A DNA stretch of 64,000 bases from Muribaculaceae bacterium (GTDB lineage: Bacteria > Bacteroidota > Bacteroidia > Bacteroidales > Muribaculaceae), in NCBI GenBank assembly GCA_022509065.1, contig JAFLTY010000003.1:1900-65899 (forward strand). Direction: 5' to 3'. Every line of letters starts with the position of its first letter. Position 1 is the first letter of the stretch. The notes below the pieces were generated by a model that made no database searches, was not told the DNA's origin, and saw nothing but the letters and a program-made list of their open reading frames with translations. Positions 11,663 to 39,567 of the stretch are shown here, piece by piece. Position numbers and translations under genes: made by a program.

Positions 11663-11743
11663 TACTGATAACATACATTCATTTGATTTTGCACGAAGTA
11701 ATTTTTATCAGTACCTAATCAAAAACCTAAAATTAACCTGTTC

Positions 11744-12814: not shown

Positions 12815-12856
12815 GCGTGTAAGTTTTTAATCGGTTGATATGATTGGTTAAAGCCA

Positions 12857-15034: not shown

Positions 15035-15047
15035 GAGTCAGACAGGA

Positions 15048-18176: not shown

Positions 18177-18215
18177 GTATTTCTAAGGTCGTGAATAAAT
18201 GTGTTCTGAGGTACC

Positions 18216-19832: not shown

Positions 19833-19863
19833 TGTTCGATTTATAGCAACAAACAATAAAATG

Positions 19864-19893
19864 TGTTCAAATAAGTGAAATTTCTGTTCAAAT
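19864..19893 (-). promoter_or_regulatory. Direct repeat operator candidate: 2 x TGTTCAAAT (sense ATTTGAACA), 21-bp spacing, 31 nt from -7 box
   Basis: Perfect 9-mers at 19864-19872 and 19885-19893. The same geometry occurs at three other promoters in the window. Confidence 0.55.
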
Positions 19894-24000: not shown

Positions 24001-25084
24001 GCGCAAAGGCCATCGCCCTTATGGCCGAATTAGCTTTCGGCAATCCCGTACCTTCCCATCCGACAAAGATAAAGGGCATTGAGCGCGTCATCAGTAGTTC
24101 CAAACCGCCAATACTTCTGACAACGATAAGGTTTCCGTCAGAGTCTTCTATCACCGATACGATAGGAGTGACCCCCGACGTGCTCGAGTTATATTGGCTG
24201 ACTTCGTTGAACTTTCCACTGATAGTCCCATACTGCCAGATACCTTCGTCACTGCTGATAAACAGCGAGCCGTCAGGCCGTGTTATCAAAGAGTTAGCCA
24301 CACCGATAAATCCGGGGGTGGAGATGGCTTTAATCTCGCCGGTCAAGCCCTCAAGAACATATAGACCGTTTCCCGAAGTCACCCAGAGGTCACGACCCGA
24401 AGGAGACAGCAATACGGCGTTTTTACTATTGACAAATCCGGGAATATGATATGACTTAATCATTTCGCCGTTGTCGTCGAACGACTGTATGTCGCCATCA
24501 AAAGTTGCCGCGTAAATAAGACCGTCGGCGCCTGTCACTATATCGCTATAGAATGACCCGTGGCGGCTGTTCTGTTTGAGCTCTGACTCAGAAGGGTCGT
24601 ATAAAAATACGCCTTGACCGAGGGTTCCTATCCATATCTTACCTTTTTCGCCGGCTATCACTCCGCTTACCTGAGAGCTTATGGTAACACCATATTTTGT
24701 GGTTGCAATAAATTTCTCAATAGTATTGTTGGCGCGGTCGTAAGTATAAAGCCCTTTATCGGTGCCTATCCACACCTTGTCACCATCCTCATAAAATGTC
24801 AGCACGGACATTCCCGAGATATTTTGTAACACTCGCGATTGGTTGCCAAAAACCGGCATACCGTTACCGTCGAAACACTCCAATCCGGAAGCTGTCCCTA
24901 CCCATAAAAATCCATATCGGTCGCGGAAGGCGCTAAGATTTTCTGTTTTATTCGCAACATCTGTCTTGATAATTTCGAAAATGGGAGAAGCGGCGAAAGA
25001 CACCTGACAGAAAAGACACCCAAGCAAGAGTACGCACATTGTGCGCAGTTTAAAAATCGATGTTTTTGTAGCTTTTTTATTCAT
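21098..25084 (-). CDS. Hybrid two-component system (HTCS) sensor kinase / response regulator with AraC-type HTH output
   Basis: The periplasmic region has beta-propeller repeats and a Y_Y_Y-like part. A TM segment follows, then H-box HEIRTPL, ATPase G-boxes DDGPGV and GTGLGLAYAK, and receiver LLVDDNDD...SDVMMDVMDG. The C-terminal AraC HTH reads SPNEYLKNFRLNHAAQLL. The ATG at 25084 gives MNKKATKTSIFKLRTMCVLLLGCLF. Confidence 0.9.
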   Translation of the reverse strand: MNKKATKTSIFKLRTMCVLLLGCLFCQVSFAASPIFEIIKTDVANKTENLSAFRDRYGFLWVGTASGLECFDGNGMPVFGNQSRVLQNISGMSVLTFYEDGDKVWIGTDKGLYTYDRANNTIEKFIATTKYGVTISSQVSGVIAGEKGKIWIGTLGQGVFLYDPSESELKQNSRHGSFYSDIVTGADGLIYAATFDGDIQSFDDNGEMIKSYHIPGFVNSKNAVLLSPSGRDLWVTSGNGLYVLEGLTGEIKAISTPGFIGVANSLITRPDGSLFISSDEGIWQYGTISGKFNEVSQYNSSTSGVTPIVSVIEDSDGNLIVVRSIGGLELLMTRSMPFIFVGWEGTGLPKANSAIRAMAFAPRRDVIWVGTDDGVCVFDIASRQFRPSIVTDLSDVSVTTMVLKGEELWIGTHNDGIYKCDTRNGIISHYTYDPNKPYTVISNNINHIGCTRSGQILVLTDWGVCRYDEAGDNFPQLPEFEQNTRAMGMQEDNAGGIWISSSNNGLYYRRPDDPRFSRAFWCKSLNTSPITAFAFDNEKRIWAASSKGEIYVYNDSIEDFRQIEMPAVNNVLTAFMGSDDLGNIWLGTDEWLVRADEGDNHRYFNFSRQAAQIPVSSPAIVLDKGWMAIGCVDGLMLFNPASLQKYDYKPRVYPLALSLPVLPDDSDELSSRNLNVPLYTRDNIKLPYTDNTFTISFAAIRPLSESDLRYDYMLEGIDKGWVIGSNVAEVTYNNLSPGNYEFLLRPHGLKDAEVTRMGVSILPPWYRTDWAFLAYLILLILLGWMAYKIGRVLVQRNLQRKMQEVQVQKEREVFEAKTRYFVDLVHEIRTPLMLISLPLEQLAGETTTGKPSDNKSSNDKYIKSMQRNIDYLLGITNQLLDFRRAESDSEIRLNLSRCNVSDMLRNIYRRFEEPMRVRGKDLVLRLPEDDVRATIDVDKIERLFMNLLGNGMKYAKSRLVISLRETEDGTVELTVADDGPGVPEAERERIFDTYYQIGNDKVAATLGTGLGLAYAKLIANAHGGNIIVGESAEDGGALFTLTIPKGDNLEVVNDKEYDDFNEREDAVATRQDVTVLLVDDNDDLREMITETLASHYTVVSASNGQQALDVLKDNKIDIIVSDVMMDVMDGLELCRKVKGDINYSHIPFVLLTAMTSPEAHEEGLMCGAEVYLEKPFPMRQLVLQIENLLKSRRLIYEKLASENNLPDAKSPMAGLNKMDAEFLEKMNALITESINNEEFSIDLLAQRLNMSRSSFYRKITAVTGMSPNEYLKNFRLNHAAQLLRDGYRVTEVSERVGFTSSSYFAKCFREKFGVLPSDYPPQTEGAES

Positions 25085-25092
25085 AAAGTACA

Positions 25093-25100
25093 CAAAGATA
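25093..25100 (-). promoter_or_regulatory. Possible -7 box (TATCTTTG on minus strand) for HTCS gene
   Basis: The reverse complement of caaagata matches TAnnTTTG. It is very close to the ATG at 25084, so it is uncertain. Confidence 0.25.
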
Positions 25101-25236
25101 CAAATTATTCGCAATTCATATGACAATCCGAAAGTTTTTTCATTCGTATCTGCCTTTTCAGACCCATTTCATGTTATTAAACTCTGCTATTTGGGAATGT
25201 TCTCCCCAAAAAACGTGACGCATGGATAGATATAAA

Positions 25237-25427: not shown

Positions 25428-27473
25428 TCAGTTTGCTCGAGGGAAAGCAGCTATTCTGAGTCGCGCCGCTCCCATAGGTATCAGTGTAATAGAAGTTTCC
25501 TGGTCGCTCTGTGGCACAAACTTGGTGGGCAACAGGTCGGTAAGACCGGTTTCGTCGTATCCCCACGAAGGGATTTGACGGCCTACAGCCTTAAATTCGA
25601 AAGGCACGCTTTCGGGGGTGAAAGGCATGTTGTCAGCAGGCCATTCTTTTTTTGTAACCACGAAATCAACTGGCAAGTTATTGTCATCGACTTTGAGAGC
25701 ATAGTTCCAAGCAGATCCGGGACGTAACACATAGCATGGCCACAACGAAGCGTCCACACCCTCCTGCCAATGCGAGTCATCCTGCACGAAATCGGTGTCG
25801 CGGCTATCATGAGGTTCTATTATCTCGTCTATCTTGAGCGACAGGGTCAACGGACCGTAGTTGACACTTACGCTCGATTTGTTTTGTTGCCACACATCGG
25901 CTGTAACCGACATGGGTAAGGTGAGGCGCACTTCGTCGCCATCTTTCCATTCCCGGTTGAGACGTATGTATTTCCCTTCGGCTGCGGCTATGTCCTGAGC
26001 CTCCCCGTTAACGGTCACCGAAGCGTCTTTCGCCCATGCGGGAACACGAAGATACAACGGGAAAGACACAGTGCCGTCGGTATTGACAGTTATGGCTACT
26101 GTCTCGTCAAAGGGATATTCTGTTTTCTGAGTCAGTGTCACTTTCTTTCCGTTCGCGACGTTTGCAGTCGTTGTATTGGCGGCATATAGCATTGTGGCGA
26201 GTCCCCCGTCGGCGGTGGCCATCACCAGATGCTCGGCGTAATATGGCCAACCCATACCGTGATTATGCTGGCAACAACGGCTACTGAAAGGGCTCATCGA
26301 AAGCATACCGCGTAAATTGTTATCAATGCCGGGTCCATGCAGTTTTTCGTCACTGATGGCCATATTGGCAGATGTGATGTACCGCAACGATTTCATGTCG
26401 GGCATCAAAGCGGCGGTAAACGAGTTCAAAGCTACGTTCTCGCAGTGATCCGCCCAGAAAGGGTCACCGGTTATGCCCATCAGTATCTCGTCACTGGCCA
26501 TGTGTTCGACAAGAGCGCATGTCTCGGCGCCTTGACGAGGATCGAAATATCCCGCGCGTGCATTCTCGTCGGCGGCATACATACCGCCGGGCATCTGTCC
26601 GTAGCGGACTCGCATGGTGTTAAAATTATCATAGGTATGACGTAACATGGCCTCGTCGCCGGTGTACATGTAATAGGTCGCCGGTTCGCGAAAACCCTGT
26701 GCAACGTTAACTCCGTGCCAGTTAGGCAGATCGTTGTCGAGCGTCCAGTCGGATGTGTTTCTGTGAAGCTTGTCAATGAGCGGCAGGACACTTTCGTCTC
26801 CCGTACGGTTATACAGCCATAGGACACTCCATAGGTTATCGCCACCACGTTTCTCCTGCCACAGCCCTTTGAGGAACTGTGAGTCGGGGACGGTCATCTC
26901 CCATTTGAAATAATTTGTCATAGCGTCAAGGACACGCTCATCACCGCTGTTTTCATAATATGTCTGAAGAGCCCAAAGCATAATCATCTGCGCCCACAGT
27001 TCGGGGTTACCGTTTTCGTAGTTGTGCGGTCCCAGGAAACCGTCTGACTTTAGATTGGACAGCACAGCGTCAAACCACACCTGCGCCTCTTTTTTCATTT
27101 CCTCGTCATCAAGGATATACGCCAGGCTGCAATAACCTCGCAACCAATATGGCACTTCTTCCCATCCGTGGTCGCCACTGTCGCTCAGCCATTGGTTATT
27201 GTTCTTATCCAACCATGCGCTTACAGTGCCAAGTTTGCCGTTAAGTCCCTCTTTTTGTAATTCGAGATACTGACGTAGCCAACCACCAGGTTGAACAGCA
27301 CCGACCGGCAACTTTAACAACGGAGCCTGCACGAGGGGTGCGCGGAAGTTGGTATAATTCTGATTAGTACCCTCTAAGGGTCGTTCGACCACTGTTGTCT
27401 GACCGCAAACCCCCATGGCACCTATTGACATGGCCAAGGCCGCAAGCACGGTTTTTATATTGATTTTGTTCAT
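25428..27473 (-). CDS. GH127/GH146-type (DUF1680) beta-L-arabinofuranosidase-like cysteine glycosidase
   Basis: GAETCALVEHM (Glu-x-Cys) and SRCCQHNHGMGW (Cys-Cys) match the Zn/Cys catalytic signature known for the GH127 enzyme HypBA1. It has a signal peptide. It starts only 29 nt after the stop of paralog A. Confidence 0.75.
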   Translation of the reverse strand: MNKINIKTVLAALAMSIGAMGVCGQTTVVERPLEGTNQNYTNFRAPLVQAPLLKLPVGAVQPGGWLRQYLELQKEGLNGKLGTVSAWLDKNNNQWLSDSGDHGWEEVPYWLRGYCSLAYILDDEEMKKEAQVWFDAVLSNLKSDGFLGPHNYENGNPELWAQMIMLWALQTYYENSGDERVLDAMTNYFKWEMTVPDSQFLKGLWQEKRGGDNLWSVLWLYNRTGDESVLPLIDKLHRNTSDWTLDNDLPNWHGVNVAQGFREPATYYMYTGDEAMLRHTYDNFNTMRVRYGQMPGGMYAADENARAGYFDPRQGAETCALVEHMASDEILMGITGDPFWADHCENVALNSFTAALMPDMKSLRYITSANMAISDEKLHGPGIDNNLRGMLSMSPFSSRCCQHNHGMGWPYYAEHLVMATADGGLATMLYAANTTTANVANGKKVTLTQKTEYPFDETVAITVNTDGTVSFPLYLRVPAWAKDASVTVNGEAQDIAAAEGKYIRLNREWKDGDEVRLTLPMSVTADVWQQNKSSVSVNYGPLTLSLKIDEIIEPHDSRDTDFVQDDSHWQEGVDASLWPCYVLRPGSAWNYALKVDDNNLPVDFVVTKKEWPADNMPFTPESVPFEFKAVGRQIPSWGYDETGLTDLLPTKFVPQSDQETSITLIPMGAARLRIAAFPRAN

Positions 27474-27502
27474 AAAGATACTGCTGTTTAGATAGGAGAT
27501 GA

Positions 27503-28801
27503 TTATTTGATAATTAATTTCTTTCCGTTTTGTATATATATACCGGGAGCAAGCCCTTTTGTGTCTGTGCTGATGTATCTTCCGTAAAGGTCATAAATCC
27601 GATTGTCGGCAAAGCTTTTCTCTTCGCTAACAGGGAAGAACACAAAGTTTTGACTATATGGCATTTCTACAGCGAGTCCATAGTCAATATGGCCACCTCC
27701 GGCACCTTGCATCAATGATACGGCAAGTATGTTATCGCCCTCGTGAAGCAACGCTTTCTGCTCAGCGTTGAAGTTAAGACGGGCGTAGTCGTTATCGTTC
27801 CAGCCGGAGGCACTCCATAGCTGCGTGCCGTTTAGATACATGACAGGGTTTTCGTCATAGCTGCATGTCATAACCACACGGGAGTCCTCGTTGTTAATAG
27901 CCGCCATGTCATCGGCTGTAAGCGTAAAATGCCGTCGGACAAGAATGGGTCGTACCTGGCTTGGCCATTCCGTGACAAGGAACATATTCCTGTCGTTACT
28001 GAACGGTCCCACACCTTCAATCCAGAAAGTCTCGTCCTCGTCGCTACCGAACCATTCGGCGCGCTCGGCAGGTTCGATGTCTGTGTTGTAGTTAAGTATA
28101 TAGTATTTGCAGGGCCATGAGCCATCGGCAACCGTGTGCAGCAAAGTCCTGGTGACGGTCACGTCGGCGCCGTAGAGTCCGCAGTCGGCGAAAGCGCCTC
28201 CCCAGTTCTGATGGACATGGACTGCAATTATATTTTCTCCTTGTTTTAACAATGCTTTCTTATCGTCAGAAAGAAGCACGTATTCGTCATTGTTCCAGCC
28301 GTCCGTGACGCTGTGAACCATTTCTCCGTTTATATACCATTCGGACGGCGCGTCATCGTGTCCGCATGCCAGATATACAGGGCTGTCAGGCACGTTATCG
28401 AGTGTGAAAGTGCGCCGCAAATAAATCTCACCGGTTATGTCCGATGTTATCCAACGATATGAAGTCTGGCCATTGTAAACGGCGTCCGAGCTGAACGGAG
28501 CCCGTTGGATGCTCCACCCTTCTTCACCGTTATATCCGGGCATGTACCATGCATTCCCCTCATCGTCGGCGCCCGGTGTCGCCCATATCCTGTTATAGTC
28601 GGCGTCTGCGTAACGTTTGCCTTCGTTAAACACCCATACATTCGCTTCATAAGGAAGTGCGGGCGTGTACTGAGATGAAGGTAGAATAATGTTGTTGGGA
28701 TTGAAAGTGCTTCGCAACTCGTCCGTTACAGCCATAGCGCTAAAAGATGTTGACACCATGACGAGAGCCACTAACATTCCGGGATATTTGTTTTGTAACA
28801 T
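27503..28801 (-). CDS. Paralog A: secreted protein made of two jelly-roll (galactose-binding-like) modules plus short T9SS-like tail
   Basis: Signal peptide. Module 1 ends AVHVHQNWGGAFADCGLYGAD and module 2 ends AVSLMQGAGGGHIDYGLAVEMP. The tail is NRIYDLYGRYIS...APGIYIQNGKKLIIK. It aligns with the N-terminal halves of paralogs B and C. Confidence 0.7.
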   Translation of the reverse strand: MLQNKYPGMLVALVMVSTSFSAMAVTDELRSTFNPNNIILPSSQYTPALPYEANVWVFNEGKRYADADYNRIWATPGADDEGNAWYMPGYNGEEGWSIQRAPFSSDAVYNGQTSYRWITSDITGEIYLRRTFTLDNVPDSPVYLACGHDDAPSEWYINGEMVHSVTDGWNNDEYVLLSDDKKALLKQGENIIAVHVHQNWGGAFADCGLYGADVTVTRTLLHTVADGSWPCKYYILNYNTDIEPAERAEWFGSDEDETFWIEGVGPFSNDRNMFLVTEWPSQVRPILVRRHFTLTADDMAAINNEDSRVVMTCSYDENPVMYLNGTQLWSASGWNDNDYARLNFNAEQKALLHEGDNILAVSLMQGAGGGHIDYGLAVEMPYSQNFVFFPVSEEKSFADNRIYDLYGRYISTDTKGLAPGIYIQNGKKLIIK

Positions 28802-28814
28802 ATAGGCTTTTTTA

Positions 28815-28853
28815 AAGTGCGCCTCGAAAGTTCGAGTCTTTCGGGGCGCACTT
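28815..28853 (-). promoter_or_regulatory. Strong stem-loop (16-bp arms, one mismatch) between paralogs B and A
   Basis: AAGTGCGCCTCGAAAG pairs with CTTTCGGGGCGCACTT across a 7-nt loop. No T-run follows on the minus strand and no TAnnTTTG box was seen upstream of A. It is more likely an attenuator or processing site than a full terminator. Confidence 0.45.
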
Positions 28854-28889
28854 ATTGTGTAATATAGTCAGAATCTAACTATGGGGTCA

Positions 28890-31577
28890 TTAGCGAACAA
28901 TAAACTTCTTACCGTTGCGGATATAGAGGCCGGGAACATTGGCGTTCTTAACTTCGATACCCTGCAGGTTGAAGATGCGGTTGTCTTCTGTTTCGGGAGC
29001 TACCTTAACGTCTTCCACACCGTCAACTACGGGTTTGCCAAGGTAAGTCAGTTTGAAGTTGTCAACGACAACCCAGTCTTGTTCTGCGTCAGACTGATTT
29101 TTGTAAACACCTATTACGGCTTTTTCCTGGCCTTCTTCGACTGTGAAGGGAACTACTGTCTTGTAAAGACCGGCTTTAAAGTAGCTGGTTACTTGCATGC
29201 ATCCGTCGGGGAACTCTACTTGCTCGCCGTCCTCGGTAGTTGTCACGCGACCTTCACCGGGAGCCATATTGCTTTCGCTCAGGATGTTGGGAAGTTCAAC
29301 GTCTTCGCCATCTTCATCGCTTCCTGCCACTACATAAGCGTACTGGGCGCGGTCATTGTCCACTTGATAATCGAAGCTGCCATTACGATAGAAACCTTGT
29401 ACTGTGAGTACATAGTCGCCTTCGGGAAGGCCTTCGATGAACTGGTTTAAGGTCATATCACTCGTATTCCACGATTCGAGAACGAAGTCATAATGATTTC
29501 CACCTCTTTCCCAAACACTGGCGTTCTCGATTTCCCAAGCATCCATAGTTACGCGTTGGTTGAAGCCGGGATTGACGATAAAGAGCGATGCGTCAACAGG
29601 ATTTTCTTCGCTGGCTTCGTCAAGAAGGGCAAGACGTTCTTCGCGAGTAACGAGTTTCCACATTGCGTTTTCGTTGGCTTTGTCAAGGTTGCGCGATTCG
29701 GTGCATACGTTTGTTTCGTCGCTCTGACCGCCGTCAACGCTTCCGTAGGGATCCCACTGTATGTGTACGTCGGGATAATCGCTCTGTACGATAAAGTAAA
29801 TATTGTCACGACCTTCTACGGGGACAAACGCCCAACCGTCCTGACCTACTGTGTGGCCGGCATCCATATAGCCGCGATAGTTCAGATAATGGTTGTTTTC
29901 ACCGTTATAAAGACCTGTTTCGATAACGAACGAAGGAACTCCAGCTTTGCTGTCCTCGATTTTTTCCATGAGGGTAAGTTCGTCGCCATAGAAGCCGAGA
30001 GCTGCGTGAGCACCCCAGTCTGAACCGCCCTGGAGGAACTGTTTCTGACCTACGTTGTAAAGATAGAATTTGCCTTCGGCGGCTTCGTTGCCTTCAAATA
30101 CATCTTCGTGTTTGTCGGCGGCTGCACGACGGCGAGCGTAACGCAGCGTGCGCAGAGCGTTATTGTAATCATCGCGTGTCTTAGCGGCAGCGAACTGCTC
30201 GACAGCGGTAGCGTCACTGTAAATCTTAAGAGTTGCGTTGAAGTTATTGATAGCTTCCGAAGCGTCGCGTACAGCGGCTATAGCGCCCTGAAGAGCATCT
30301 ATGGCACTATCGAAATCTTTCACGTTTTCACCGGTGGCCAATACTGCTTCGGCTGTTTCTATTGCTTTTTCAACTTGAGGTGTCTGCAAAGCTTCACGGG
30401 CTTCTTCTATGAGCTGAGAGAGAAGAGCTTTATGCAGAGTAAGGTCTTCGGTGAAAGTGAAACCGTCGCAAGGCATTTCAACATAGAGACCGAAATCGAT
30501 GTGACCGCCGCCACTGCCTTGTTGAGCCGATACGCCAATCACGTTTTTACCTTCCACAAACAGAGCTATTTGGTCTGGGTTGAGTTCGTGAAGGGCATAA
30601 TTGGAGTCGTTCCAACCTTCGGCACTCCAAATTTCAGTTCCGTTCAGATAAACATGAGGGTATTCGTCATAGCTGCAAGTCAGATATACTTTGCCATGAT
30701 CTTTAAGAGCTTCAAGGCTTTCGTCTGTCAATGTGAAATAACGACGAACCAGTATGGGGTTAGCATCGCTGTTCCAATATGTTGTGCGGAATTCGTCATT
30801 ACTGTTGCTGTAGGGACCCGAAGCTATTGTCCAGTTCGAATCATCAGCATTGATAGCAAAGCAACCGTCGGCCACTGCACCGGCGATAGCATCGTTATTT
30901 TCAACGAGAGTATATTTGCTTACCCAGCTCTTACCTACTGAAACAGGAGCGTGGATGTATAGTTTTACGTCAGCGCCATAAAGACCGCAGTCGGCGTAAG
31001 CGCCACCCCAGTTCTGGTGTACGTGAACGGCCATAAGGTTTTCACCTACCTGCAGAGCAGCTTTTTCTTCGTCCGAAAGAAGTACAACGGCTCCTTCGTC
31101 CCATCCTTCAGTTTCGAAATGAACGAGTTTACCATTAATATACCATTCTGACGGGGCGTCGTCACGACCGCAAGCAAGATAAACGGGACCTTCAGGAATT
31201 TCATCGAGAGTGAAAGCGCGACGTATATAGATGTCACCCATAATTTCTCCGGCAATCCATTTGTCAGTGGTGAAAGGAGATTCCTTTACTTCCCAGTCGA
31301 TATCAGCGCTGTTTGTAAGAGTATATGCGTTTTCAAACCACTCGTTACCTTCAGCATCCGCTTCGGGAGTGCCCCAGATTTTGTTGTAATTAGGTTCGCT
31401 ATACCTTTCGCCGGTATTTACAATCCATACATCGGCTGTCCAGGGACTGTCCGGAGTGTGACGCGATGACGGTAGTATCACCTTGTTTGTGTTAATTGAC
31501 ACAACTGTTTCTCCGTTTGCGTAACCACTAATTATGGTAGCAACGGCAACGGAAAGGGTTAATAAAAATTTTTTCAT
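28890..31577 (-). CDS. Paralog B: two jelly-roll modules + helical linker + ~430-aa C-terminal beta-rich region + short T9SS-like tail
   Basis: The ATG at 31577 gives MKKFLLTLSVAVATIISGYA; the track start 31610 is a GTG. Blocks HVHQNWGGAYADCGLYGAD, GSGGGHIDFGLYVEMP, YLYNVGQKQFLQGGSDWGAHAALG and NAMWKLVTR are present. The tail is NRIFNLQGIEVKNANVPGLYIRNGKKFIVR. Confidence 0.7.
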   Translation of the reverse strand: MKKFLLTLSVAVATIISGYANGETVVSINTNKVILPSSRHTPDSPWTADVWIVNTGERYSEPNYNKIWGTPEADAEGNEWFENAYTLTNSADIDWEVKESPFTTDKWIAGEIMGDIYIRRAFTLDEIPEGPVYLACGRDDAPSEWYINGKLVHFETEGWDEGAVVLLSDEEKAALQVGENLMAVHVHQNWGGAYADCGLYGADVKLYIHAPVSVGKSWVSKYTLVENNDAIAGAVADGCFAINADDSNWTIASGPYSNSNDEFRTTYWNSDANPILVRRYFTLTDESLEALKDHGKVYLTCSYDEYPHVYLNGTEIWSAEGWNDSNYALHELNPDQIALFVEGKNVIGVSAQQGSGGGHIDFGLYVEMPCDGFTFTEDLTLHKALLSQLIEEAREALQTPQVEKAIETAEAVLATGENVKDFDSAIDALQGAIAAVRDASEAINNFNATLKIYSDATAVEQFAAAKTRDDYNNALRTLRYARRRAAADKHEDVFEGNEAAEGKFYLYNVGQKQFLQGGSDWGAHAALGFYGDELTLMEKIEDSKAGVPSFVIETGLYNGENNHYLNYRGYMDAGHTVGQDGWAFVPVEGRDNIYFIVQSDYPDVHIQWDPYGSVDGGQSDETNVCTESRNLDKANENAMWKLVTREERLALLDEASEENPVDASLFIVNPGFNQRVTMDAWEIENASVWERGGNHYDFVLESWNTSDMTLNQFIEGLPEGDYVLTVQGFYRNGSFDYQVDNDRAQYAYVVAGSDEDGEDVELPNILSESNMAPGEGRVTTTEDGEQVEFPDGCMQVTSYFKAGLYKTVVPFTVEEGQEKAVIGVYKNQSDAEQDWVVVDNFKLTYLGKPVVDGVEDVKVAPETEDNRIFNLQGIEVKNANVPGLYIRNGKKFIVR

Positions 31578-31636
31578 AAAATATTGATTTAAAAAGTTAA
31601 GTTGGTTCACGGTACAGATTGCTACTTTTAGCGCTA

Positions 31637-31644
31637 CAAAATTA
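31637..31644 (-). promoter_or_regulatory. -7 promoter box (TAATTTTG on minus strand) for paralog B
   Basis: The reverse complement of caaaatta matches TAnnTTTG, about 60 nt upstream of the ATG at 31577. Confidence 0.5.
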
Positions 31645-31675
31645 TGGTCAATATATCGTGTTTGTTAATAATATT

Positions 31676-31705
31676 TGTTCAATATATAGTATTTTTTAAT
31701 CATTT
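31676..31705 (-). promoter_or_regulatory. Operator candidate for paralog B (TGTTCAATA proximal, degenerate TAATCATTT distal)
   Basis: The proximal 9-mer is exactly 31 nt from the -7 box and the distal one is 21 bp further. This is the same geometry as at 19864-19893 and 34852-34881. Confidence 0.45.
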
Positions 31706-31869
31706 TTACTTGTTTGGCTGCATTGTTTAGTGTGTATGTAGCGTGGGGTCGCCCGTAAGTGTTCTTTACGACCAAAAACATGTCAAATCCCGGCTCACAT
31801 ACCGCTAATCGACAACTGCATCATGCAAAGTAAAACTTTTTTTAGAGCTGCCTCCTAAACTTCCTTAGC

Positions 31870-31894
31870 AAAAAAAGCCTCGCCGGCGCGAGCC
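31870..31894 (-). terminator. Rho-independent terminator after paralog C
   Basis: The minus strand reads GGCTCGC-GCCG-GCGAGGC followed by TTTTTTT (the plus-strand A-run at 31870-31876). Confidence 0.55.
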
Positions 31895-31929
31895 AACGAG
31901 ACTTTTTATTATTAAGAGTTGGAGTTGTC

Positions 31930-34749
31930 TTAACGGACAATGAACTTCTTACCGTTGCTGATGTAGATGCCGGGAGTGTTGGCATTTTTCACTTCCATAC
32001 CCTGGAGGTTGAAGATACGGTTGTCAGCGGGACGTGCCACGCTATCGAACATAACATCTTCGACACCTGCAAGGTAATCTTTAACAGCCTGTTTGGTTGT
32101 GTCCTTACCGTAATATTTCAGACGGAAGTTGTCGACTACAATCCAGTCACCGGGTTCGTCACCGGCTTCTTCTTTGTACACACCGACCGACATATCAACG
32201 CCATCACCTTGTTCCACTACGGTATAGGCCTTATAAAGACCGAGTTTGAAGTAATTGGTGGCCTGGTTGCAGTATTCGGGAATGTGCCAGTTCTTTGTGC
32301 CATCGGCATTGCTGTAGTCTGCACCTTCGCCGGGAGCTTTTCCGCTTTCCGAAAGGATGTTGGGAAGCTGGACGTCGTCCTCATAGTCATTGCCGGCGAA
32401 AAGCCATGCATTCTGTTTTTCGGGCAGGTTGGCCTGACCTAAGCATTCGTAACCGTCGATATTGTCATGATATTTGTGTGAACCGTTACGGTAAAAACCT
32501 GTAACACTTACTTCATAGATACCTTCGGGAAGACCTTCGACCATTGTTACGAGTTCCGAGCTTTCTTGGTTCCACGATTCAGCTGTGAAATCGGGATAGT
32601 TGCCGCCACGTCCCCAGAATGCGAAGTTAGTTACAGACCAATTGTCAATGGTTTCGCGCTGATTGAAGTTGGGGTTGACGATGTAGTACGAAAGGTCAAC
32701 GGGGTTTTCGAGCGATGCGGTGGCGATAAGAGCGTCGCGTTCGGCGCGTGTCACCAGTTTCCACATAGCGTCTTCGTTAGTGGGATCGAGATTGCGAGAC
32801 TCGGTGCAAACGTTTGTTTCGTCGTTGTTGCCACCGTCTACGCTTCCGAAGGGATTCCATTGAACGTGTACATCGGGATAGTCAGCCTGTACAATATAAT
32901 ATGTGTTAGTACGACCTTCAACGGGAAGGAATGCCCAACCACCGGCACCTGCGTCGTAACCGCTGTCCATATAACCGCGATAACCGAGGAAATGTTGTTC
33001 GGCGCCGTTATAGAGACCGGTTTCGATGACGTAAGCTTTTGTTCCGGCGTTAGTTTCGGCTATTTCGTCGATGAGGTTGATTTCGTTACCGATAATACCG
33101 AGAGCGGCGTGTGCGCCCCAGTCAGAACCGCCCTGAAGGAACTGTTTCTGACCTACGTTGTAAAGATAGTAAGCGCCTTCGGCGGGTTCAGCGCCTACAA
33201 ACACGTCTTCCTGAGTTTCGGCAACCGAACGACGGCGAGCGAAACGCAGAGTCTTGATAGCGTTTGCATAATCGTCGCGTGTTTGAGCAGCTTCGAATTT
33301 AGCTGTTGCTTCCGCATCGGTAAAGATGGACTGAGTGTCATAATAAGCCTGAATGTCGTTGCGTGCAGCACGGATAACGGCTATGGCGCTCTGTAGTTTA
33401 TCGATAGCTTCGAGAAGAGCTGTCGATGTGGGTGTGCCGGCGAGGATAGCTTCGGCATCTGCTATCTGAGTAGCAAAGTGAGGTGTCGTGGGAAGCGACT
33501 TAGCCTGGTCGATAAGTGCCTGCAGCTGTTCCTTGAGAGGTTCTGTACCGCCACTCATCTCAACATTGTCGCAATAAGATACTGAATAGAAACCGTAGTC
33601 AATGTGACCACCGCCACCACCGCGCTGTACTGATACTGCAAGAACGTTGTCACCTTCAACAAGAAGAGCGACCTGTTCGGGGGTCAGTTCGTATGTATCG
33701 TAGCGTGCATCGTTCCAACCGTCTGCGCTCCAGATAAGTTCGCCGTTGAGGTAAACTTTAGGATACTCGTCGTAGCTGCATGTCAGGAAAGCGTTGCTCA
33801 TAGCAGCGATTTCCGAAGCGGTAAGGGTGAAGTGACGACGAACGAGCAGGGCTGTACCCATATTCTCTTCACCAAGGTCAGTGTTACTGTTCCAATAGGT
33901 AACACGGAACTGGTCGTCGCTGTTACTGAACGAACCCTGACCTACTGTCCAGTCGGATTCGTCAGCGTCTTTGGCAAAAGCGCCGGCTTCGACTGCGGCA
34001 GCGATATCTTCGTTAGTGTCAATTAATTTATAAACACAGTCCCAAGCACCGTCAGCAACGGTATTGAGGTAGCTTGTCTTATAGTCGGCAGCGTACAGAC
34101 CGCAGTCGGCGAAAGCACCGCCCCAGTTCTGGTGCACATGCACGGCTAATACGTTTTCGCCCGGCTTAAGAAGAGCCTTCTGCGACTCTTCCAAAAGAAC
34201 ATATTCTCCGTTGTTCCAACCGTCGGCAACCATGTGTACAAGGACACCGTTGAGATAGTATTCAGCGGGAGCGTCATCGTGTCCGCAAGCAAGGTAAATG
34301 GGACCGTCGTGTACTGTGTTGAGAGTGAATGTGCGACGCATGTAGAAATCGCCCATGATGTCGCTGGTGATCCATTGGAATGATTTGTTGTCTTTATAAT
34401 ACTCGTCCGAGCTGAAAGGAGCGGTTTCGAGAGTCCATTCCGAACTTTCACCGTTAACAGGCGAGTAATTCACCGCATACCATGCGTTGCCGGCTGCGTC
34501 GTTGGCGGGCACGCCCCATACATGGTTGTAGTTTTCGTTTTCGTAACCTTGCGCACCTTCGTAACGTTGACCTGTGTTAACAACGTAGACAAGAGCCTGA
34601 TAGGGAAGGTTGGGTGTATACTCCGACGAAGGGAGTATAACATTGGCAGCATTCCACGTCGGTGTAACGTCACCTTCGGCATACGCTGCGACGGGAGCCA
34701 TCGCTATGGCGGCGACAGCAAACATCCCGGCTAAGTAAAATTTTTTCAT
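31930..34749 (-). CDS. Paralog C: same architecture as B (939 aa)
   Basis: Signal MKKFYLAGMFAVAAIAMAPVAAYA. Blocks HVHQNWGGAFADCGLYAAD, RGGGGGHIDYGFY, YLYNVGQKQFLQGGSDWGAHAALG and DAMWKLVTR are present. The tail is NRIFNLQGMEVKNANTPGIYISNGKKFIVR. Confidence 0.7.
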   Translation of the reverse strand: MKKFYLAGMFAVAAIAMAPVAAYAEGDVTPTWNAANVILPSSEYTPNLPYQALVYVVNTGQRYEGAQGYENENYNHVWGVPANDAAGNAWYAVNYSPVNGESSEWTLETAPFSSDEYYKDNKSFQWITSDIMGDFYMRRTFTLNTVHDGPIYLACGHDDAPAEYYLNGVLVHMVADGWNNGEYVLLEESQKALLKPGENVLAVHVHQNWGGAFADCGLYAADYKTSYLNTVADGAWDCVYKLIDTNEDIAAAVEAGAFAKDADESDWTVGQGSFSNSDDQFRVTYWNSNTDLGEENMGTALLVRRHFTLTASEIAAMSNAFLTCSYDEYPKVYLNGELIWSADGWNDARYDTYELTPEQVALLVEGDNVLAVSVQRGGGGGHIDYGFYSVSYCDNVEMSGGTEPLKEQLQALIDQAKSLPTTPHFATQIADAEAILAGTPTSTALLEAIDKLQSAIAVIRAARNDIQAYYDTQSIFTDAEATAKFEAAQTRDDYANAIKTLRFARRRSVAETQEDVFVGAEPAEGAYYLYNVGQKQFLQGGSDWGAHAALGIIGNEINLIDEIAETNAGTKAYVIETGLYNGAEQHFLGYRGYMDSGYDAGAGGWAFLPVEGRTNTYYIVQADYPDVHVQWNPFGSVDGGNNDETNVCTESRNLDPTNEDAMWKLVTRAERDALIATASLENPVDLSYYIVNPNFNQRETIDNWSVTNFAFWGRGGNYPDFTAESWNQESSELVTMVEGLPEGIYEVSVTGFYRNGSHKYHDNIDGYECLGQANLPEKQNAWLFAGNDYEDDVQLPNILSESGKAPGEGADYSNADGTKNWHIPEYCNQATNYFKLGLYKAYTVVEQGDGVDMSVGVYKEEAGDEPGDWIVVDNFRLKYYGKDTTKQAVKDYLAGVEDVMFDSVARPADNRIFNLQGMEVKNANTPGIYISNGKKFIVR

Positions 34750-34812: not shown

Positions 34813-34820
34813 CAAATTTA
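34813..34820 (-). promoter_or_regulatory. -7 promoter box (TAAATTTG on minus strand) for paralog C
   Basis: The reverse complement of caaattta matches TAnnTTTG, 63 nt upstream of the ATG at 34749. Confidence 0.5.
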
Positions 34821-34851
34821 AAGCCGCTATATTACAACCCATAAAAATCGC

Positions 34852-34881
34852 TGTTCAATTATCGTTACATTCTGTTCATTT
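34852..34881 (-). promoter_or_regulatory. Operator candidate for paralog C (TGTTCAATT, TGTTCATTT; 21-bp spacing)
   Basis: The proximal 9-mer (34852-34860) is exactly 31 nt from the -7 box. The distal one is at 34873-34881. Confidence 0.5.
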
Positions 34882-34919
34882 TATTAAAAACCGTATCAGT
34901 AGCCACGTCAAAAATCTTT

Positions 34920-34960
34920 ATTTGACCACATTTCAACGATATTTGAACAAAATTTGACCA
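34920..34960 (+). promoter_or_regulatory. Operator candidate for the 1504-aa gene (ATTTGACCA, ATTTGAACA, extra ATTTGACCA)
   Basis: The 9-mers at 34920-34928 and 34941-34949 are 21 bp apart, and the second ends exactly 31 nt before the -7 box. A third copy sits at 34952-34960. The set is the mirror image of 34852-34881. Confidence 0.5.
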
Positions 34961-34980
34961 AAATTCTTGTTTTGTTGGAT

Positions 34981-34988
34981 TAATTTTG
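34981..34988 (+). promoter_or_regulatory. -7 promoter box (TAATTTTG) for the 1504-aa gene
   Basis: TAnnTTTG match 65 nt upstream of the ATG at 35053. Confidence 0.5.
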
Positions 34989-34991
34989 CGA

Positions 34992-35052: not shown

Positions 35053-38000
35053 ATGAAAAAAATCAGTCTGTACCTATCGGCACTATCGTTAATGGCCACG
35101 GCTTCCCTGCCCGCCACAGCTCAGACAGCAGCCGATTTCGTTCCCTACCGGCAAACCGACATTCGTATGCCGTCGGTTCCCCTGTTGGTGAACGACCCCT
35201 ATTTCTCTATCTGGTCTAACTATGACGCACTCAACGGCGGTCCCACACGCATGTGGTGCGAACATGAAAAAGCAATTGAAGGCATACTGCGCGTTGATGG
35301 CACAGCCTATCGCTTTATGGGCACAGGCATCAAAACGCTGTTGCGTCCCATCGCCGGTATGACTGTCGACGGCACCGACTGGTCGGGTAGAGTCAGCTAC
35401 AACAAACGCACTGACGCCCAATGGGCAACTCCCGGCTTTGACGACAGCAGTTGGGCTGTCGAGGAGGCCGCATGGGGAACACCCGGTGAATATCCCAATG
35501 TCAGAAACAAATGGACCGGCGACAACAAAGATATCTACGTGCGCCGTACCGTTACCCTCACTCCCGAGGACTTGGAGAAAGACCTGTGGGTAATGTACTC
35601 GCACGATGACGTTTTCGAACTCTACGTTAACGGCACACGCGTTGTATCGACAGGCGAGACATGGCGTCAAGGCGAGCAACACCGCCTCAGCGATGCCGAA
35701 AAAGCTCTTCTTAAACCCGGCGACAATATCATAGCAGGCTATTGCCACAATACAACCGGTGGCTCGTACATCGATTTCGGTCTGTATGAAAACACTCTGC
35801 CCGAGGGAGCCGATACCCAGATGGCTCAACAGAACTCGGTTTATGTCCTTGCCACAAGTTCCTACTACAACTTCACCTGTGGGCCTGTAAACCTCGACTT
35901 GGTGTTTACCGCCCCCATGCTGATTGACGATCTCGACCTTATCTCTACTCCCATCAACTTCATTTCCTATCAAGTGACAGCCAACGACGGTAAGGAACAT
36001 GACGTGCAGTTCTATCTGGGCACATCGGCACAGCTCACTGTCAACGAGATGAGCCAACCCACCATAACCACCACTGTCAAGGAAGGCGGAATAACATACG
36101 CCAAAGCTGGCTCCGAGGCTCAGAATATACTTGGACGCTCGGGCGATATGATTTCGATTGACTGGGGTTATCTCTACATACCAGCTATTAACGGCGAAGT
36201 CAGTGTGGCTCCTGTCGAGACATCCGAAGCTTACTTCATTAAAACAGGTAAACTTCCCGAAAATGTCAGCGGCGAAATACGCAGTACAAACCGCGCCAAC
36301 ATGCCTGTCATTAACTTCGTTAACGATATGGGTAAAATAAAAGAAGGCCGCTCATTTATGATGATAGGCTATGACGAAGTGTACGACATGCAGTATATGC
36401 ACAATAACTACAAGGCATACTACGCTCGTAACGGCAAAACAATATTTGACGCATTTAAAGAGTTCAACCGCGACTATTCCAGCCTGATGGAGCGTTGCCG
36501 CGCACTTGACAAAATGATATACGACGACGGCCTTGCGGCAGGCAATGTCAAATATGCCGAACAACTTTCGGGTTGCTACCGCCACGTCATGGCCGCTCAC
36601 AAACTCTTTGAGGACAACACAGGTAAAGCACTGTATTTCTCGAAAGAAAACAAGTCTAACGGTTGCGTTAACACCGTCGACCTTACATACCCCGAATCGC
36701 CTCTCTATCTCCTCTACAACCCCGAGTTGCAGAAAGGTATGATTCTTTCAATACTTGACTACGCATTGTCCGACGCACGCAAGGGTAAAAACTGCGCCGC
36801 CCATGACCTGGGACAATATCCTCTGGCAAACGGACAGGTGTACGGCGACACAATGCCTCTTGAAGAATCTGCAAACATTATCCTGTTGGCCGATGCTATT
36901 TGCCGTATCACCGGCGATGGTGAATGGCTAAAACCCTATCGCAACGTCCTGAAAACATGGGCCGACTACTGTTATGCAGAAGGCCAGAATCCCGGCAACC
37001 AGCTCTGTACAGACGACTTTAAGGGTCCAAGCGAACAAAACACTAACCTTTCCGTCAAGGCCATTATGGCAGTGGCCGCTTACTCAAACCTTATCCCTTA
37101 CATCGGAGCTAATGCGCGTGACATCGAGAAATATCAAAAATACGCACAGGATATGGCTCTTATTTGGGAAGGAACCGCACGCGACGGTGACCACTACCGC
37201 ATGGAATTCCACAAACCGGGCACATGGAGTCAGAAATACAACCTTGTATGGGACAAAATGTGGGGTCTCGAGCTTTTCCCACAGGAAGTACTCGACCGCG
37301 AAATCAAATTCTACCTCAACCATCAGCAGAAATACGGACTGCCCCTTGACAGCCGCGACTTCATGACAAAGAGCGACTGGATAATGTGGACTGCCTCAAT
37401 GGCTCCCGACACCGAAACATTCCTTAAATTCTCGGACAAACATTACGACTACATCAACGAAACCACCTCGCGAATACCGTTGAGCGACTTCTTCTGGGCT
37501 CACACCGGCGTATCGTGCAACTTTAGCGCACGTTCGGTCATTGGCGGTCTGTGGATGAAAGTCCTCATGGATAAATACGCCCCCGTTAAGGAAGCTACCG
37601 CTTGGTCGCCCAAAGGAAACCACATCAAAACACGTTGGGCAGAACAAGTCAATCCCGAGTGTCCTCTTCCTGAACATCCCAAACCTCTGATGGTACGCAA
37701 CGAATGGAAAAACCTCAACGGACTTTGGGAATATGCCATAGGCGAATCAAACGGCACAGCGCCGACAGTTTGGGAAGGCGAGATTCTCGTTCCCTACCCC
37801 ATAGAGTCAAGTCTGTCGGGCGTTATGCGTCCTCTCGAACCGGGCAAAGCGCTTTGGTATAAAAAAGACATAGTTGTTCCCGAGGAATGGGACGGCAAGA
37901 AAGTGCTTCTGAACTTCGGAGCTGTCGACTATCAGGCAACCGTGTATGCCAACGGAACAAGCGGGCGCAACCAGATTGGTTCGCATATCGGTGGCCATAC

Positions 38001-39567
38001 GGCATTTACTGTTGACCTCACCAATTATCTCACCGATGGTAAAGCGACAGTCTACGTCAAAGTTATCGACAACACTGACGAGGGCAGACAACCTGTAGGC
38101 AAGCAGCGTCGTTATCCCGCCGGAAACGGTGACATCAATTACACCTCGACTTCAGGCATCTGGCAGACCGTATGGTTGGAAGCCGTTCCCCAAGCCTACA
38201 TCACCGACATACGCACTACTCCCGACGTAGATAACAGCAACCTCACTTTCGATGTCGCTCTGAAAGGTACTATAGGCGGCGAAGTTGAAGTCAAGGTTCT
38301 TGACGGTAACACTGTTGTGGCACAGAAATCTGTACCTGCAGCCAACACCACGACATTAACCCTCGATATTCCCGACGCTAAGTTGTGGAGTCCGGCACAT
38401 CCCAACCTCTATAACGTGCAAGTGACTTACACCAACGGCGATAACATCGATAAGGTTGACAGCTATGCCGCTCTTCGCAAGATATCATACGCCAAAGACG
38501 ATAAAGGGTTCTGGCGCCTTCAACTTAACAATAAAGACCTTTTCCAATTCGGTCCTCTTGACCAAGGTTATTGGCCCGACGGCCTGTTGACAGCTCCTAC
38601 CGACGAAGCTCTTCGCTTTGATTTGGAAAAAACAAAAGACTGGGGCTTCAACATGGTTCGCAAACACATGAAAGTCGAACCGGCACGCTGGTATTGGCAC
38701 TGCGACAGCCTTGGATTACTGGTATGGCAGGATATGCCCTCGCAATTCACCACCGACGAAGGCGACTGGCACGTCTTTGACTGGTATCCCGAACATAACT
38801 GCTCGATAGACCCGACAATCGAGAAAAATTTCAAAAACGAATGGCAGGAAATCATCGAACAGCACTATTCTAACCCGTGTATTGTCGTTTGGACACCGTT
38901 TAACGAACGCTGGGGTCAGTTCAAGACAGCCGAGATAGTGGCTTTCACTCAACAACTCGATCCCACGCGCCTGGTTAACCCGGCCAGTGGCGGCAACCAC
39001 TACAAACTTGGCGAAGGTACATTTGTGGATCAACACACCTATGACCAACCGATAGTCGTTTACGAAGGAGTGTTCGACTATACACGCCCCTACGTGTTGG
39101 GCGAGTATGGAGGCCTTGGTCGCAACATATCCGGTCATCGCTGGTATGAAAAAGACTCGCAGACATACAACACCTACCCCAACGAAAAAGCCATCACGGA
39201 CGCCTACGTCACACTGGTGGGTCAAATACAGAACATCGCCAACGGATACGTTAACAACGGACGCCATATTTGCTATGGAGCCGCGGTTTACACACAGACC
39301 ACCGATGTCGAAACAGAAGTAAACGGCATCATGACATACGACCGCGAAGTCATTAAGTTTGATGAAGACCGTATACGCGCTGCCGCCCACGCGCTAACCT
39401 CGATGTTTGGAAATGAAGACTCGGGCGTGGCTGTAGTCCCTTTCGTTGACGGCACCGGTGAACCTATCTATTATGATGTAATGGGGATTCGTCATAATGC
39501 GCCGGTGCCCGGAATCAATATAATTCTAAACCCCGACGGTTCAGCTTCTAAACAGCTGATTAAATAA
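35053..39567 (+). CDS. 1504-aa chimeric secreted enzyme: glutaminase-A-like (DUF4964/DUF5127/DUF4965/DUF1793-type) module with inserted jelly-roll, fused to a complete GH2 module, plus T9SS-like tail
   Basis: The N-terminus PSVPLLVNDPYFSIWS...LRVDGTAYRFMG is glutaminase-like. The insert WATPGFDDSSW...IYVRRTV...LSDAEKALLKPGDNIIAGYCHNTTGGSYIDFGLY aligns with paralogs A-C. The (alpha/alpha)6-type part reads VDLTYPESPLYLLYNP...AHDLGQYP...EESANIILLA. From about nt 37600 the GH2 blocks are NFGAVDYQATVYANG, GIWQTVWLE, WTPFNERWGQF and VLGEYGG. Confidence 0.7.
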   Translation: MKKISLYLSALSLMATASLPATAQTAADFVPYRQTDIRMPSVPLLVNDPYFSIWSNYDALNGGPTRMWCEHEKAIEGILRVDGTAYRFMGTGIKTLLRPIAGMTVDGTDWSGRVSYNKRTDAQWATPGFDDSSWAVEEAAWGTPGEYPNVRNKWTGDNKDIYVRRTVTLTPEDLEKDLWVMYSHDDVFELYVNGTRVVSTGETWRQGEQHRLSDAEKALLKPGDNIIAGYCHNTTGGSYIDFGLYENTLPEGADTQMAQQNSVYVLATSSYYNFTCGPVNLDLVFTAPMLIDDLDLISTPINFISYQVTANDGKEHDVQFYLGTSAQLTVNEMSQPTITTTVKEGGITYAKAGSEAQNILGRSGDMISIDWGYLYIPAINGEVSVAPVETSEAYFIKTGKLPENVSGEIRSTNRANMPVINFVNDMGKIKEGRSFMMIGYDEVYDMQYMHNNYKAYYARNGKTIFDAFKEFNRDYSSLMERCRALDKMIYDDGLAAGNVKYAEQLSGCYRHVMAAHKLFEDNTGKALYFSKENKSNGCVNTVDLTYPESPLYLLYNPELQKGMILSILDYALSDARKGKNCAAHDLGQYPLANGQVYGDTMPLEESANIILLADAICRITGDGEWLKPYRNVLKTWADYCYAEGQNPGNQLCTDDFKGPSEQNTNLSVKAIMAVAAYSNLIPYIGANARDIEKYQKYAQDMALIWEGTARDGDHYRMEFHKPGTWSQKYNLVWDKMWGLELFPQEVLDREIKFYLNHQQKYGLPLDSRDFMTKSDWIMWTASMAPDTETFLKFSDKHYDYINETTSRIPLSDFFWAHTGVSCNFSARSVIGGLWMKVLMDKYAPVKEATAWSPKGNHIKTRWAEQVNPECPLPEHPKPLMVRNEWKNLNGLWEYAIGESNGTAPTVWEGEILVPYPIESSLSGVMRPLEPGKALWYKKDIVVPEEWDGKKVLLNFGAVDYQATVYANGTSGRNQIGSHIGGHTAFTVDLTNYLTDGKATVYVKVIDNTDEGRQPVGKQRRYPAGNGDINYTSTSGIWQTVWLEAVPQAYITDIRTTPDVDNSNLTFDVALKGTIGGEVEVKVLDGNTVVAQKSVPAANTTTLTLDIPDAKLWSPAHPNLYNVQVTYTNGDNIDKVDSYAALRKISYAKDDKGFWRLQLNNKDLFQFGPLDQGYWPDGLLTAPTDEALRFDLEKTKDWGFNMVRKHMKVEPARWYWHCDSLGLLVWQDMPSQFTTDEGDWHVFDWYPEHNCSIDPTIEKNFKNEWQEIIEQHYSNPCIVVWTPFNERWGQFKTAEIVAFTQQLDPTRLVNPASGGNHYKLGEGTFVDQHTYDQPIVVYEGVFDYTRPYVLGEYGGLGRNISGHRWYEKDSQTYNTYPNEKAITDAYVTLVGQIQNIANGYVNNGRHICYGAAVYTQTTDVETEVNGIMTYDREVIKFDEDRIRAAAHALTSMFGNEDSGVAVVPFVDGTGEPIYYDVMGIRHNAPVPGINIILNPDGSASKQLIK

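Follow-up and report, generated by a model that had tools for sequence, protein, structure and literature searches.

Tandem half-sites in fixed register with the −7 box at four promoters of a Muribaculaceae mannan-type locus: a probable operator of its hybrid two-component regulator

A 64,000-nucleotide stretch of a Muribaculaceae bacterium genome (contig JAFLTY010000003.1; the whole stretch is referred to here as the window) carries a polysaccharide utilization locus (PUL) in which four promoters share one layout. Read in the sense direction of each promoter, a TTGAACA-like 7-mer core is followed by 14 nt (N14), a second such core, exactly 31 nt (N31) and the sequence TAnnTTTG, which is the −7 consensus of sigma-ABfr, the primary sigma factor of the Bacteroidota. 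The promoters are those of the operon beginning with a TIG-domain protein and SusC (TIG-susC), of two paralogous genes (paralogs B and C) and of a gene encoding a 1504-amino-acid (1504-aa) enzyme. As an initial annotation of this DNA had proposed, the repeats are, judged from sequence, very likely the operator of a hybrid two-component system (HTCS) encoded at 21098-25126, which would join the four units in one regulon.

A common layout at four promoters

Every element that the initial annotation had placed at these promoters was recovered when checked against the sequence, including the exact 31-nt spacing (Table 1), and the repeats are spaced 21 bp apart at all four. Perfect TAnnTTTG boxes lie ~30-64 nt 5′ of the four start codons; the promoters are predicted from sequence. 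The repeat, originally described as a 9-mer, is real, but only its last seven bases form the conserved core, the first two being weakly conserved.

Table 1. Operator elements, regulator and regulated units of the window, with published promoters in the same register. Coordinates are those of the plus strand and site letters are those of the sense strand of each promoter. Distances at the published promoters (bt and BACEGG entries) were counted in supplement text read by machine, where an error of 1 nt is possible.
Feature	Position	Strand	Description
TIG-susC operator	19854..19891	−	two tandem half-sites: distal TTGAACAGAAATTTCAC 19875-19891, proximal TTGAACACATTTTATTG 19854-19870
TIG-susC cores	19885-19891; 19864-19870	−	distal TTGAACA; proximal TTGAACA; N31 spacer 19833-19863
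TIG-susC −7 box	19825-19832	−	TAAATTTG; 31 nt 3′ of proximal core
Paralog B operator	31666..31703	−	distal ATGATTA 31697-31703; proximal TTGAACA 31676-31682; N31 spacer
Paralog B −7 box	31637-31644	−	TAATTTTG
Paralog C operator	34842..34879	−	distal ATGAACA 34873-34879; proximal TTGAACA 34852-34858; N31 spacer
Paralog C −7 box	34813-34820	−	TAAATTTG
1504-aa gene operator	34922..34960	+	distal TTGACCA 34922-34928; proximal TTGAACA 34943-34949; N31 spacer
1504-aa gene −7 box	34981-34988	+	TAATTTTG
HTCS gene	21098..25126	−	proposed binder; lies between regulated units
TIG-susC unit	9996..19787	−	first regulated unit: TIG-domain protein, SusC, SusD, DUF4973 protein, GH76
Paralog C, paralog B region	25428..34749	−	paralog C 31930-34749; paralog B 28890-31610; own promoter each
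1504-aa enzyme gene	35053..39567	+	GtaA-like/GH2 fusion; first gene of rightward glycoside-hydrolase operon
bt4114			distal AAAAACA, N14, proximal AAAAACA; N31; −7 box TAATTTTG
bt4116			distal AATAACA, proximal AAAAACA; N31; −7 box TACATTTG
bt4136			distal TTAGTGA, proximal TTAGTGA; N31; −7 box TACTTTTG
bt4672			distal TCGTCCT, proximal ATGTCCA; N31; −7 box TATCTTTG
BACEGG_00070			distal TTGCACA, N14, proximal TGAAACA; N31; −7 box TATTTTTG

The observation is far from chance. The exact 9-mer ATTTGAMCA occurs six times in the window compared to 1.8 expected, with five of the six copies inside these promoters, and three of the 383 −7-like boxes of the window pass a loose fixed-geometry filter (0.27 expected). 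When the window was pooled with five syntenic loci (L001-L005, introduced below), an offset scan returned 14 matches at an offset of 31 nt and zero to three at each other offset between 15 and 49. An independent weight matrix, built from L001-L005 sites only and from no window site, gave scores of 30.4 bits for TIG-susC, 27.8 bits for paralog C and 27.6 bits for paralog B, while the maximum over 40 simulated windows was 17.6 bits. The next best site pair in the window scored at noise level. No further site rose above noise in the window, whether at the GH43 (glycoside hydrolase family 43) gene at 19999, at the promoter of the HTCS gene itself (25127-25427) or at internal promoters, and neither in the window nor in the L001-L005 flanks did another promoter pass the filter, on which ground a generic promoter feature was rejected. 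Shuffles, simulated windows and the offset scan argue against chance. Paralogy of B and C was likewise rejected as the source of the likeness, since their spacers are unrelated while their cores are kept.

Half-site anatomy and conservation at related loci

Anchored alignment of 20 promoters from this PUL family gave information peaks nowhere but at the two 7-mers, at a TT located 4-5 nt after each of them and at the −7 box. From these peaks the half-site was taken to be ~17 bp long, comprising an A-box (TTGAACA), 2-4 nt and a T-rich B-box, which is ATTTCAC in the distal TIG-susC half-site; it reaches ~10 nt downstream of the 7-mer core. Relative to the first base of TAnnTTTG, the distal half-site spans −59 to −43 and the proximal half-site −38 to −22. 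The distal half-site lies exactly two helical turns 5′ of the proximal one, which abuts or overlaps the upstream promoter element. The sequence at 34952-34960 had been listed as an extra copy of the repeat; it is the B-box of the proximal half-site of the 1504-aa gene (the B-box TTTGACC lies inside it) and not an extra operator. The A-box and B-box of this same half-site give rise to an 11-bp periodicity reported by Tandem Repeats Finder at 34930-34965.

A half-site of ~17 bp fits an AraC-type domain that places two recognition helices in adjacent major grooves, as modelled for the Bacteroides thetaiotaomicron HTCS BT4124 and as seen in MarA. Specificity for the regulon probably resides in the second sub-site, the B-box that follows each 7-mer. 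No conserved −33 TTTG at a fixed distance was found in the alignment of 20 promoters, and the T-rich proximal B-box occupies that place; weak or variable −33 elements are compatible with activator-dependent promoters.

Related loci were collected by a scan of one genome per species, which yielded the five syntenic loci L001-L005; the nearest genomes are labelled Muribaculaceae or Bacteroidales metagenome-assembled genomes. The TIG protein of the window is on record on two metagenome contigs only, and its HTCS protein, in the 1328-aa reading, has no exact match on record. All five keep the HTCS, GH43, TIG, SusC, SusD, DUF4973 and GH76 genes together with the sites. Identity to the window is 70-76% for the TIG protein, 72-80% for SusC and 39-47% for the whole HTCS, while among the syntenic loci the DNA-binding domain of the HTCS reaches 75-84% and its recognition helices SRSSFYRKI and SSSYFAKCF are invariant. 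The geometry is kept at orthologous promoters of the five syntenic genomes and of four metagenome contigs, the flanks having diverged, and at 16 related promoters the repeats are spaced 21-22 bp apart. In diverged surroundings, the TIG promoters of L001 and L003-L005 carry this layout with TTGAAyA-like cores. The layout recurs at the GtaA-TIG promoter of L002, at the paralog-A-like gene of L001, at the promoters of the paralog-B/C-like genes of L003-L005 and at the divergent "left" genes of L003-L005, which are orthologues of the 1504-aa gene by N-terminal sequence. Good sites are present at 1504-aa orthologous promoters of L003-L005, L006, L029 and L041, and L041 has a further site upstream of a paralog-B/C-like gene. 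The initial annotation had described the divergent region 34750-35052 of the window as two repeat pairs facing each other in mirror image, and the same arrangement exists in L041.

Two observations concern individual genes of these loci. The GH43 orthologues of L003 (9789-9816), L004 (9793-9820) and L005 (about 9740-9790) possess inverted tandem half-sites of their own. In L004 and L005 a TATATTTG box stands 42-43 nt away from them, ~one helical turn beyond N31 (L005 counted by eye), and in L003 no clear box follows the inverted pair. In L002, a stand-alone GtaA-like gene (7424-11503) lies directly 5′ of the TIG gene and carries the operator. Its homologue in the 1504-aa fusion is the N-terminal half, and because of this stand-alone gene we regard the 1504-aa protein of the window as a lineage-specific fusion of GtaA-like and GH2 modules.

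The probable regulator and the generality of the register

Published HTCS operators have a comparable construction. DNA motifs were predicted for 16 B. thetaiotaomicron HTCSs, all of them direct repeats whose sites are on average 21 bp apart, a spacing read as placing two monomers on the same helix face (Ravcheev et al. 2013). BT4124 and BT4663 shift predicted promoter fragments in electrophoretic mobility shift assays, BT4663 acting on the bt4662 promoter (mBio 2024). A DNase footprint of BT4124 at bt4114 revealed two half-sites with hypersensitive sites ~21 bp apart, matching the prediction (J Biol Chem 2026), and the binding mode modelled for BT4124 is AraC/MarA-like, with two helices. By their sequence features, the window sites belong to this established class of HTCS operators (Ravcheev 2013/RegPrecise type). 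They are ~21-bp direct repeats, they lie at promoters of susC/susD or glycoside hydrolase operons clustered with an HTCS gene, they leave a phylogenetic footprint, and the adjacent HTCS has the corresponding domain make-up.

According to Pfam, this HTCS consists of a periplasmic Reg_prop/Y_Y_Y sensor, HisKA, HATPase_c, Response_reg and an HTH_18 domain of AraC type; in its receiver the sequence shows the SHIP latch that goes with canonically regulated HTCSs. The start of the gene is ambiguous, with the longest open reading frame beginning at TTG 25126, the initial annotation at ATG 25084 and the public gene call (1313 aa) at 25039. No second transcription factor was found in the window by Pfam, and the HTCS is the only regulator of the locus. 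The proposal that the repeats are its operators gains support from the register conserved at orthologous promoters with diverged flanks, from the combination of a sole regulator with a strongly conserved DNA-binding domain, and from the correspondence of ~21-bp tandem half-sites to the published, footprinted mode of HTCS binding. From this material we infer that this HTCS binds the sites and activates rather than represses, and likewise where transcription starts, that sigma is contacted and how far the operons extend.

The register is found well beyond this PUL. Besides the published promoters of Table 1, it is present at three bt4114 orthologues, and bt2818 and bt0367 have a conserved repeat in the B-box register. 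Metagenome contigs were scanned strictly for TTGAACA-N14-TTGAACA-N31-TANNTTTG, and 37 stretches matched, about half of them in coding or repetitive DNA and four of them homologues of this PUL. In L007, L011, L014, L022 and L036 the match lies directly beside an HTCS gene whose DNA-binding domain is 32-39% identical to that of the window, and L017 and L038 contain the same site as L011. Other matches lie 5′ of SusC, GH95, CBM35/PA14, NHL-repeat and other secreted carbohydrate-related genes. An unexplained exception is L026 (3036-3102), where a perfect TTGAACA-N14-TTGAACA-N31-TACCTTTG points at a cation-efflux (CDF) gene; the strand opposite this site holds homologues of both the 1504-aa gene and the acyltransferase, and the site may be a relic promoter after rearrangement.

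Four more HTCS loci, chosen solely by homology of the receiver and DNA-binding region (43-48% identity), contain at their PUL promoters 21-bp direct repeats in the same register with the cores TTGGGGC/CTGGGAC, TTGGGAC/ATAGGAC, TTGAACG/TTGGTCT and TTCACCA/TTCTCCC. Across these four loci and nine published promoters, identity to the base 21 nt upstream was 58% at 22-38 nt from the box compared to 29% nearer and 31% farther, in a test that was partly blind, the −7 box of the four added loci having been picked after the matches were seen. Self-similarity with periods of 18-20 and 22-24 was 31-36%, and only period 21 stands out. In public assemblies of L045, L046 and L048-L051 the HTCS was called as a sensor-kinase gene plus a receiver/AraC gene of 257-324 aa, that of L045 being split in four. 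Such splitting resembles the effect of frameshifts or of faulty assembly in genes as long as those of HTCSs, and it accounts for the predominance of short proteins among the matches when the C-terminal region served as protein query.

The geometry is a mark of the HTCS class at large, and so in part is the core; neither is confined to this regulon. According to the initial annotation, the same geometry at many unrelated promoters would make it a generic promoter feature. To the letter, such promoters exist; they are, however, HTCS-linked or carbohydrate-gene promoters and not generic ones, and for this reason the class assignment is strengthened rather than refuted. We consider it slightly more likely than not that the exact register (31 nt from the proximal 7-mer to TAnnTTTG, half-sites at −59 to −43 and −38 to −22) is a phylum-wide rule for HTCS promoters, in which the A-box would be partly generic (often TTGnnCA) and specificity would lie in the remaining A-box positions and the B-box. 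Promoter elements are not mentioned in the main text of Ravcheev et al. 2013, and no paper that connects HTCS sites with the −7 element came up in targeted literature searches. Searching the literature for TTGAACA gave primer sequences only; an ISME J 2025 xylan paper concerned a Vibrio XylR-like regulator and was set aside as irrelevant.

Several points weigh against assigning all four sites to the local HTCS as an activator. The distal core of paralog B is degenerate, with three mismatches. The 1504-aa site reached only 12.3 bits on the independent matrix, and the case for this candidate site rests on its exact geometry and on the good sites at orthologous promoters. The GH43 gene, which is divergent from the TIG promoter, has no recognisable site in the window (19894-19998). 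Moreover, because the TTGAACA core and geometry occur with the very different HTCSs found in the metagenome scan, the core by itself does not identify the binding HTCS, and cross-regulation could come from a paralogous HTCS encoded at another place in the genome. Finally, BT4124 acted as a repressor in cells from the same architecture, and activation is therefore not guaranteed.

The first alternative is that the repeats are genuine HTCS-type operators bound, alone or additionally, by another HTCS encoded elsewhere in the genome. Bacteroides genomes hold dozens of HTCS paralogues, paralogue pairs with one motif exist (BT4111/BT4124), PUL-to-PUL cross-regulation is documented, and TTGAACA-type cores occur in the same register beside HTCSs of very different sequence. 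We nevertheless consider this unlikely, as the adjacent HTCS and the sites are kept together in five of five syntenic loci with a conserved DNA-binding domain, and published HTCS regulons are overwhelmingly local. It appears less likely still that the HTCS of the window binds the sites yet represses or fine-tunes rather than activates. A constitutively active BT4124 fragment repressed bt4108 and bt4114 from this architecture, and HTCSs with non-consensus latch motifs can repress. Here, however, the sites lie wholly upstream of the −33 position, a placement typical of activators and not an occluding one, the latch motif of the receiver is canonical, the −33 elements are weak or variable, and the locus has a single HTCS; at bt4114 a second site was footprinted nearer the start codon, whereas none is clear over the core promoters of the window. 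That the repeats are a generic Bacteroidota promoter part (UP-like or an extended −33 element), a remnant of promoter duplication or a product of chance, with no specific regulator, is very improbable: while B and C are paralogous, the 9-mer contains TTTG like the −33 element and the geometry occurs at many metagenome promoters, only these PUL promoters pass among the −7-like boxes of the window, cores are kept between unrelated B and C spacers, the TIG and 1504-aa promoters are not paralogous, and those metagenome matches that lie in genuine promoters are HTCS- or carbohydrate-linked.

Regulated units, proposed mechanism and related systems

Pfam assigns the locus to the alpha-mannan-type PULs, with a TIG surface protein, SusC, SusD, a DUF4973 protein, GH76, GH92, GH125, GH43, GH127, GH2, GH36, GH32 and GH3. 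The TIG-susC unit probably extends further leftwards than the genes listed in Table 1. A terminator-like hairpin at 31879-31892 follows paralog C, for which reason paralog B is treated as a separate transcription unit with its own promoter; a short paralog (27503-28801) and a GH127 gene (25428-27473) behind paralog B are probably co-transcribed with it. On the other strand, GH43, GH92, GH2, GH125, GH36 and GH32 genes lie 3′ of the 1504-aa gene in the same orientation. Paralogs B and C have no Pfam match, and the short paralog likewise belongs to no Pfam family. All three have an N-terminal module in common with a segment of the 1504-aa enzyme (tblastn cross-matches), their C-termini (…GIYI.NGKK.I..) resemble a type IX secretion sorting domain, and paralog homologues adjoin the HTCS in all syntenic loci.

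Further sequence features were noted around the promoters. A perfect 23-bp tandem duplication (CACAAGGAAAAATAACCAAATTC, two copies) occupies 34992-35037, past the −7 box and ahead of the start codon of the 1504-aa gene, in what is presumably its 5′ untranslated region. TAGCGCT(T)AAAA lies directly 3′ of the −7 boxes of paralogs B (31626-31636) and C (34801-34812), in the initial transcribed region, and L041 has TAGCGCT 14 nt after its −7 box (about 3168-3174); the B/C duplication may have left this element behind, or it may be a start-region signal. The 10-mer TTTTAGCGCT is common to the TIG, B and C promoters, with no common role evident: AGCGCTAAAA at 19900-19909 lies upstream of the TIG operator, unlike its place after the −7 box in B and C. 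A third half-site-like element, TCGAACA at 19833-19839, touches the TIG −7 box from upstream; it lies 31 nt, not 21 or 42 nt, from the proximal core and scores at noise level.

We propose a model in which the HTCS would be a membrane-anchored dimer, each protomer ending in an AraC-type domain with two helix-turn-helix motifs. Each of these domains would occupy one ~17-bp half-site, contacting the A-box TTGAACA and, after 2-4 nt, a T-rich B-box such as ATTTCAC. With direct repeats 21 bp apart, both domains would lie on the same helix face, the proximal one (−38 to −22) sitting immediately 5′ of, or over, the weak −33 element. Sensing of an oligosaccharide and phosphorylation of the receiver would free the DNA-binding domains, which would then recruit sigma-ABfr RNA polymerase or stabilise it, much as class-II AraC/XylS activators do, at promoters with a good −7 and a poor −33 element. 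Four units would thereby be turned on jointly: TIG-susCD-GH76; paralog B, followed by the short paralog and GH127; paralog C; and the 1504-aa enzyme, followed by the hydrolase operon.

One HTCS regulon of this kind would tie a Sus-like transporter operon, an array of secreted uncharacterised paralogues and a large hydrolase operon of a mannan-type PUL from an uncultured member of the Bacteroidales together, and the locus provides concrete sites for mutation. Moreover, the comparison suggests that the 31-nt register of HTCS half-sites to the −7 box stays fixed even among HTCS families that differ widely, and this may be a general rule that is useful and as yet unstated. For most PULs of gut and marine Bacteroidota no operator is known. 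If the rule is general, regulon prediction would become a simple anchored test instead of motif discovery, and HTCS regulons and transcription starts would be predictable, via the −7 box, for thousands of PULs in uncultured Bacteroidota. It would also fix the contact of the HTCS with sigma-ABfr RNA polymerase, conserved at the position of the −33 element.

Among known systems, HTCS_Rgu-1 (BT4111/BT4124; bt4114, bt4116, bt4108) resembles the window in its 21-bp direct-repeat half-sites, with an A-box ending in AACA and the B-box ATTnCAC, in the identical register (7-mer, N14, 7-mer, N31, TAnnTTTG) and in its location 5′ of susC-type operons adjoining the HTCS gene. The bt4114 half-site and the distal TIG half-site are identical at 11 of 17 positions. 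HTCS_Rgu-1 differs in that its A-box begins with AAA rather than TTG, that it serves a pectin PUL rather than mannan-type glycans, that its motif is common to two paralogous HTCSs, and in the repression by the active BT4124 fragment and the second bt4114 site described above. The operators predicted for HTCS_Hep (BT4663) and HTCS_Fru (BT1754) at bt4662, bt4675 and bt1763 are also tandem at ~21 bp, with the related cores TnAACA, TGCACA/TGAAACA and GCAACA/GAAACA; BACEGG_00070 (Table 1) is an example from this group. They differ in their B-boxes and in their substrates, heparin and fructan, and BT1754 has another sensor domain.

The locus is organised like the HTCS_Man-1/2/3 systems (BT2628, BT3302, BT3786) of the B. 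thetaiotaomicron alpha-mannan PULs, which likewise combine an HTCS with a surface beta-propeller/TIG protein, SusC, SusD, hypothetical proteins and GH76, plus GH92 and GH125. The HTCS_Man motif consists of two 16-bp direct repeats and a 5-bp spacer, giving a 21-bp period as here. Although gene content is similar, the upstream regions of BT2629 and BT3784 (machine-read text) are without a TTGAACA tandem repeat; the recognition sequence of the window sites therefore differs from that of HTCS_Man, and the locus is not assigned to that regulon.

Class-II AraC/XylS activators (AraC at I1-I2, XylS at Pm, RhaS, MelR) bind ~17-bp tandem direct half-sites with a 21-bp period and two helix-turn-helix motifs per half-site. 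As in the window, their proximal site abuts or overlaps the −35-equivalent element. The window differs in having sigma-ABfr promoters, with a TAnnTTTG −7 box and a weak −33 element, and a membrane-anchored fused kinase-regulator; and while class-II activators dimerise via the ligand-binding domain, the HTCS is proposed to do so via its kinase.

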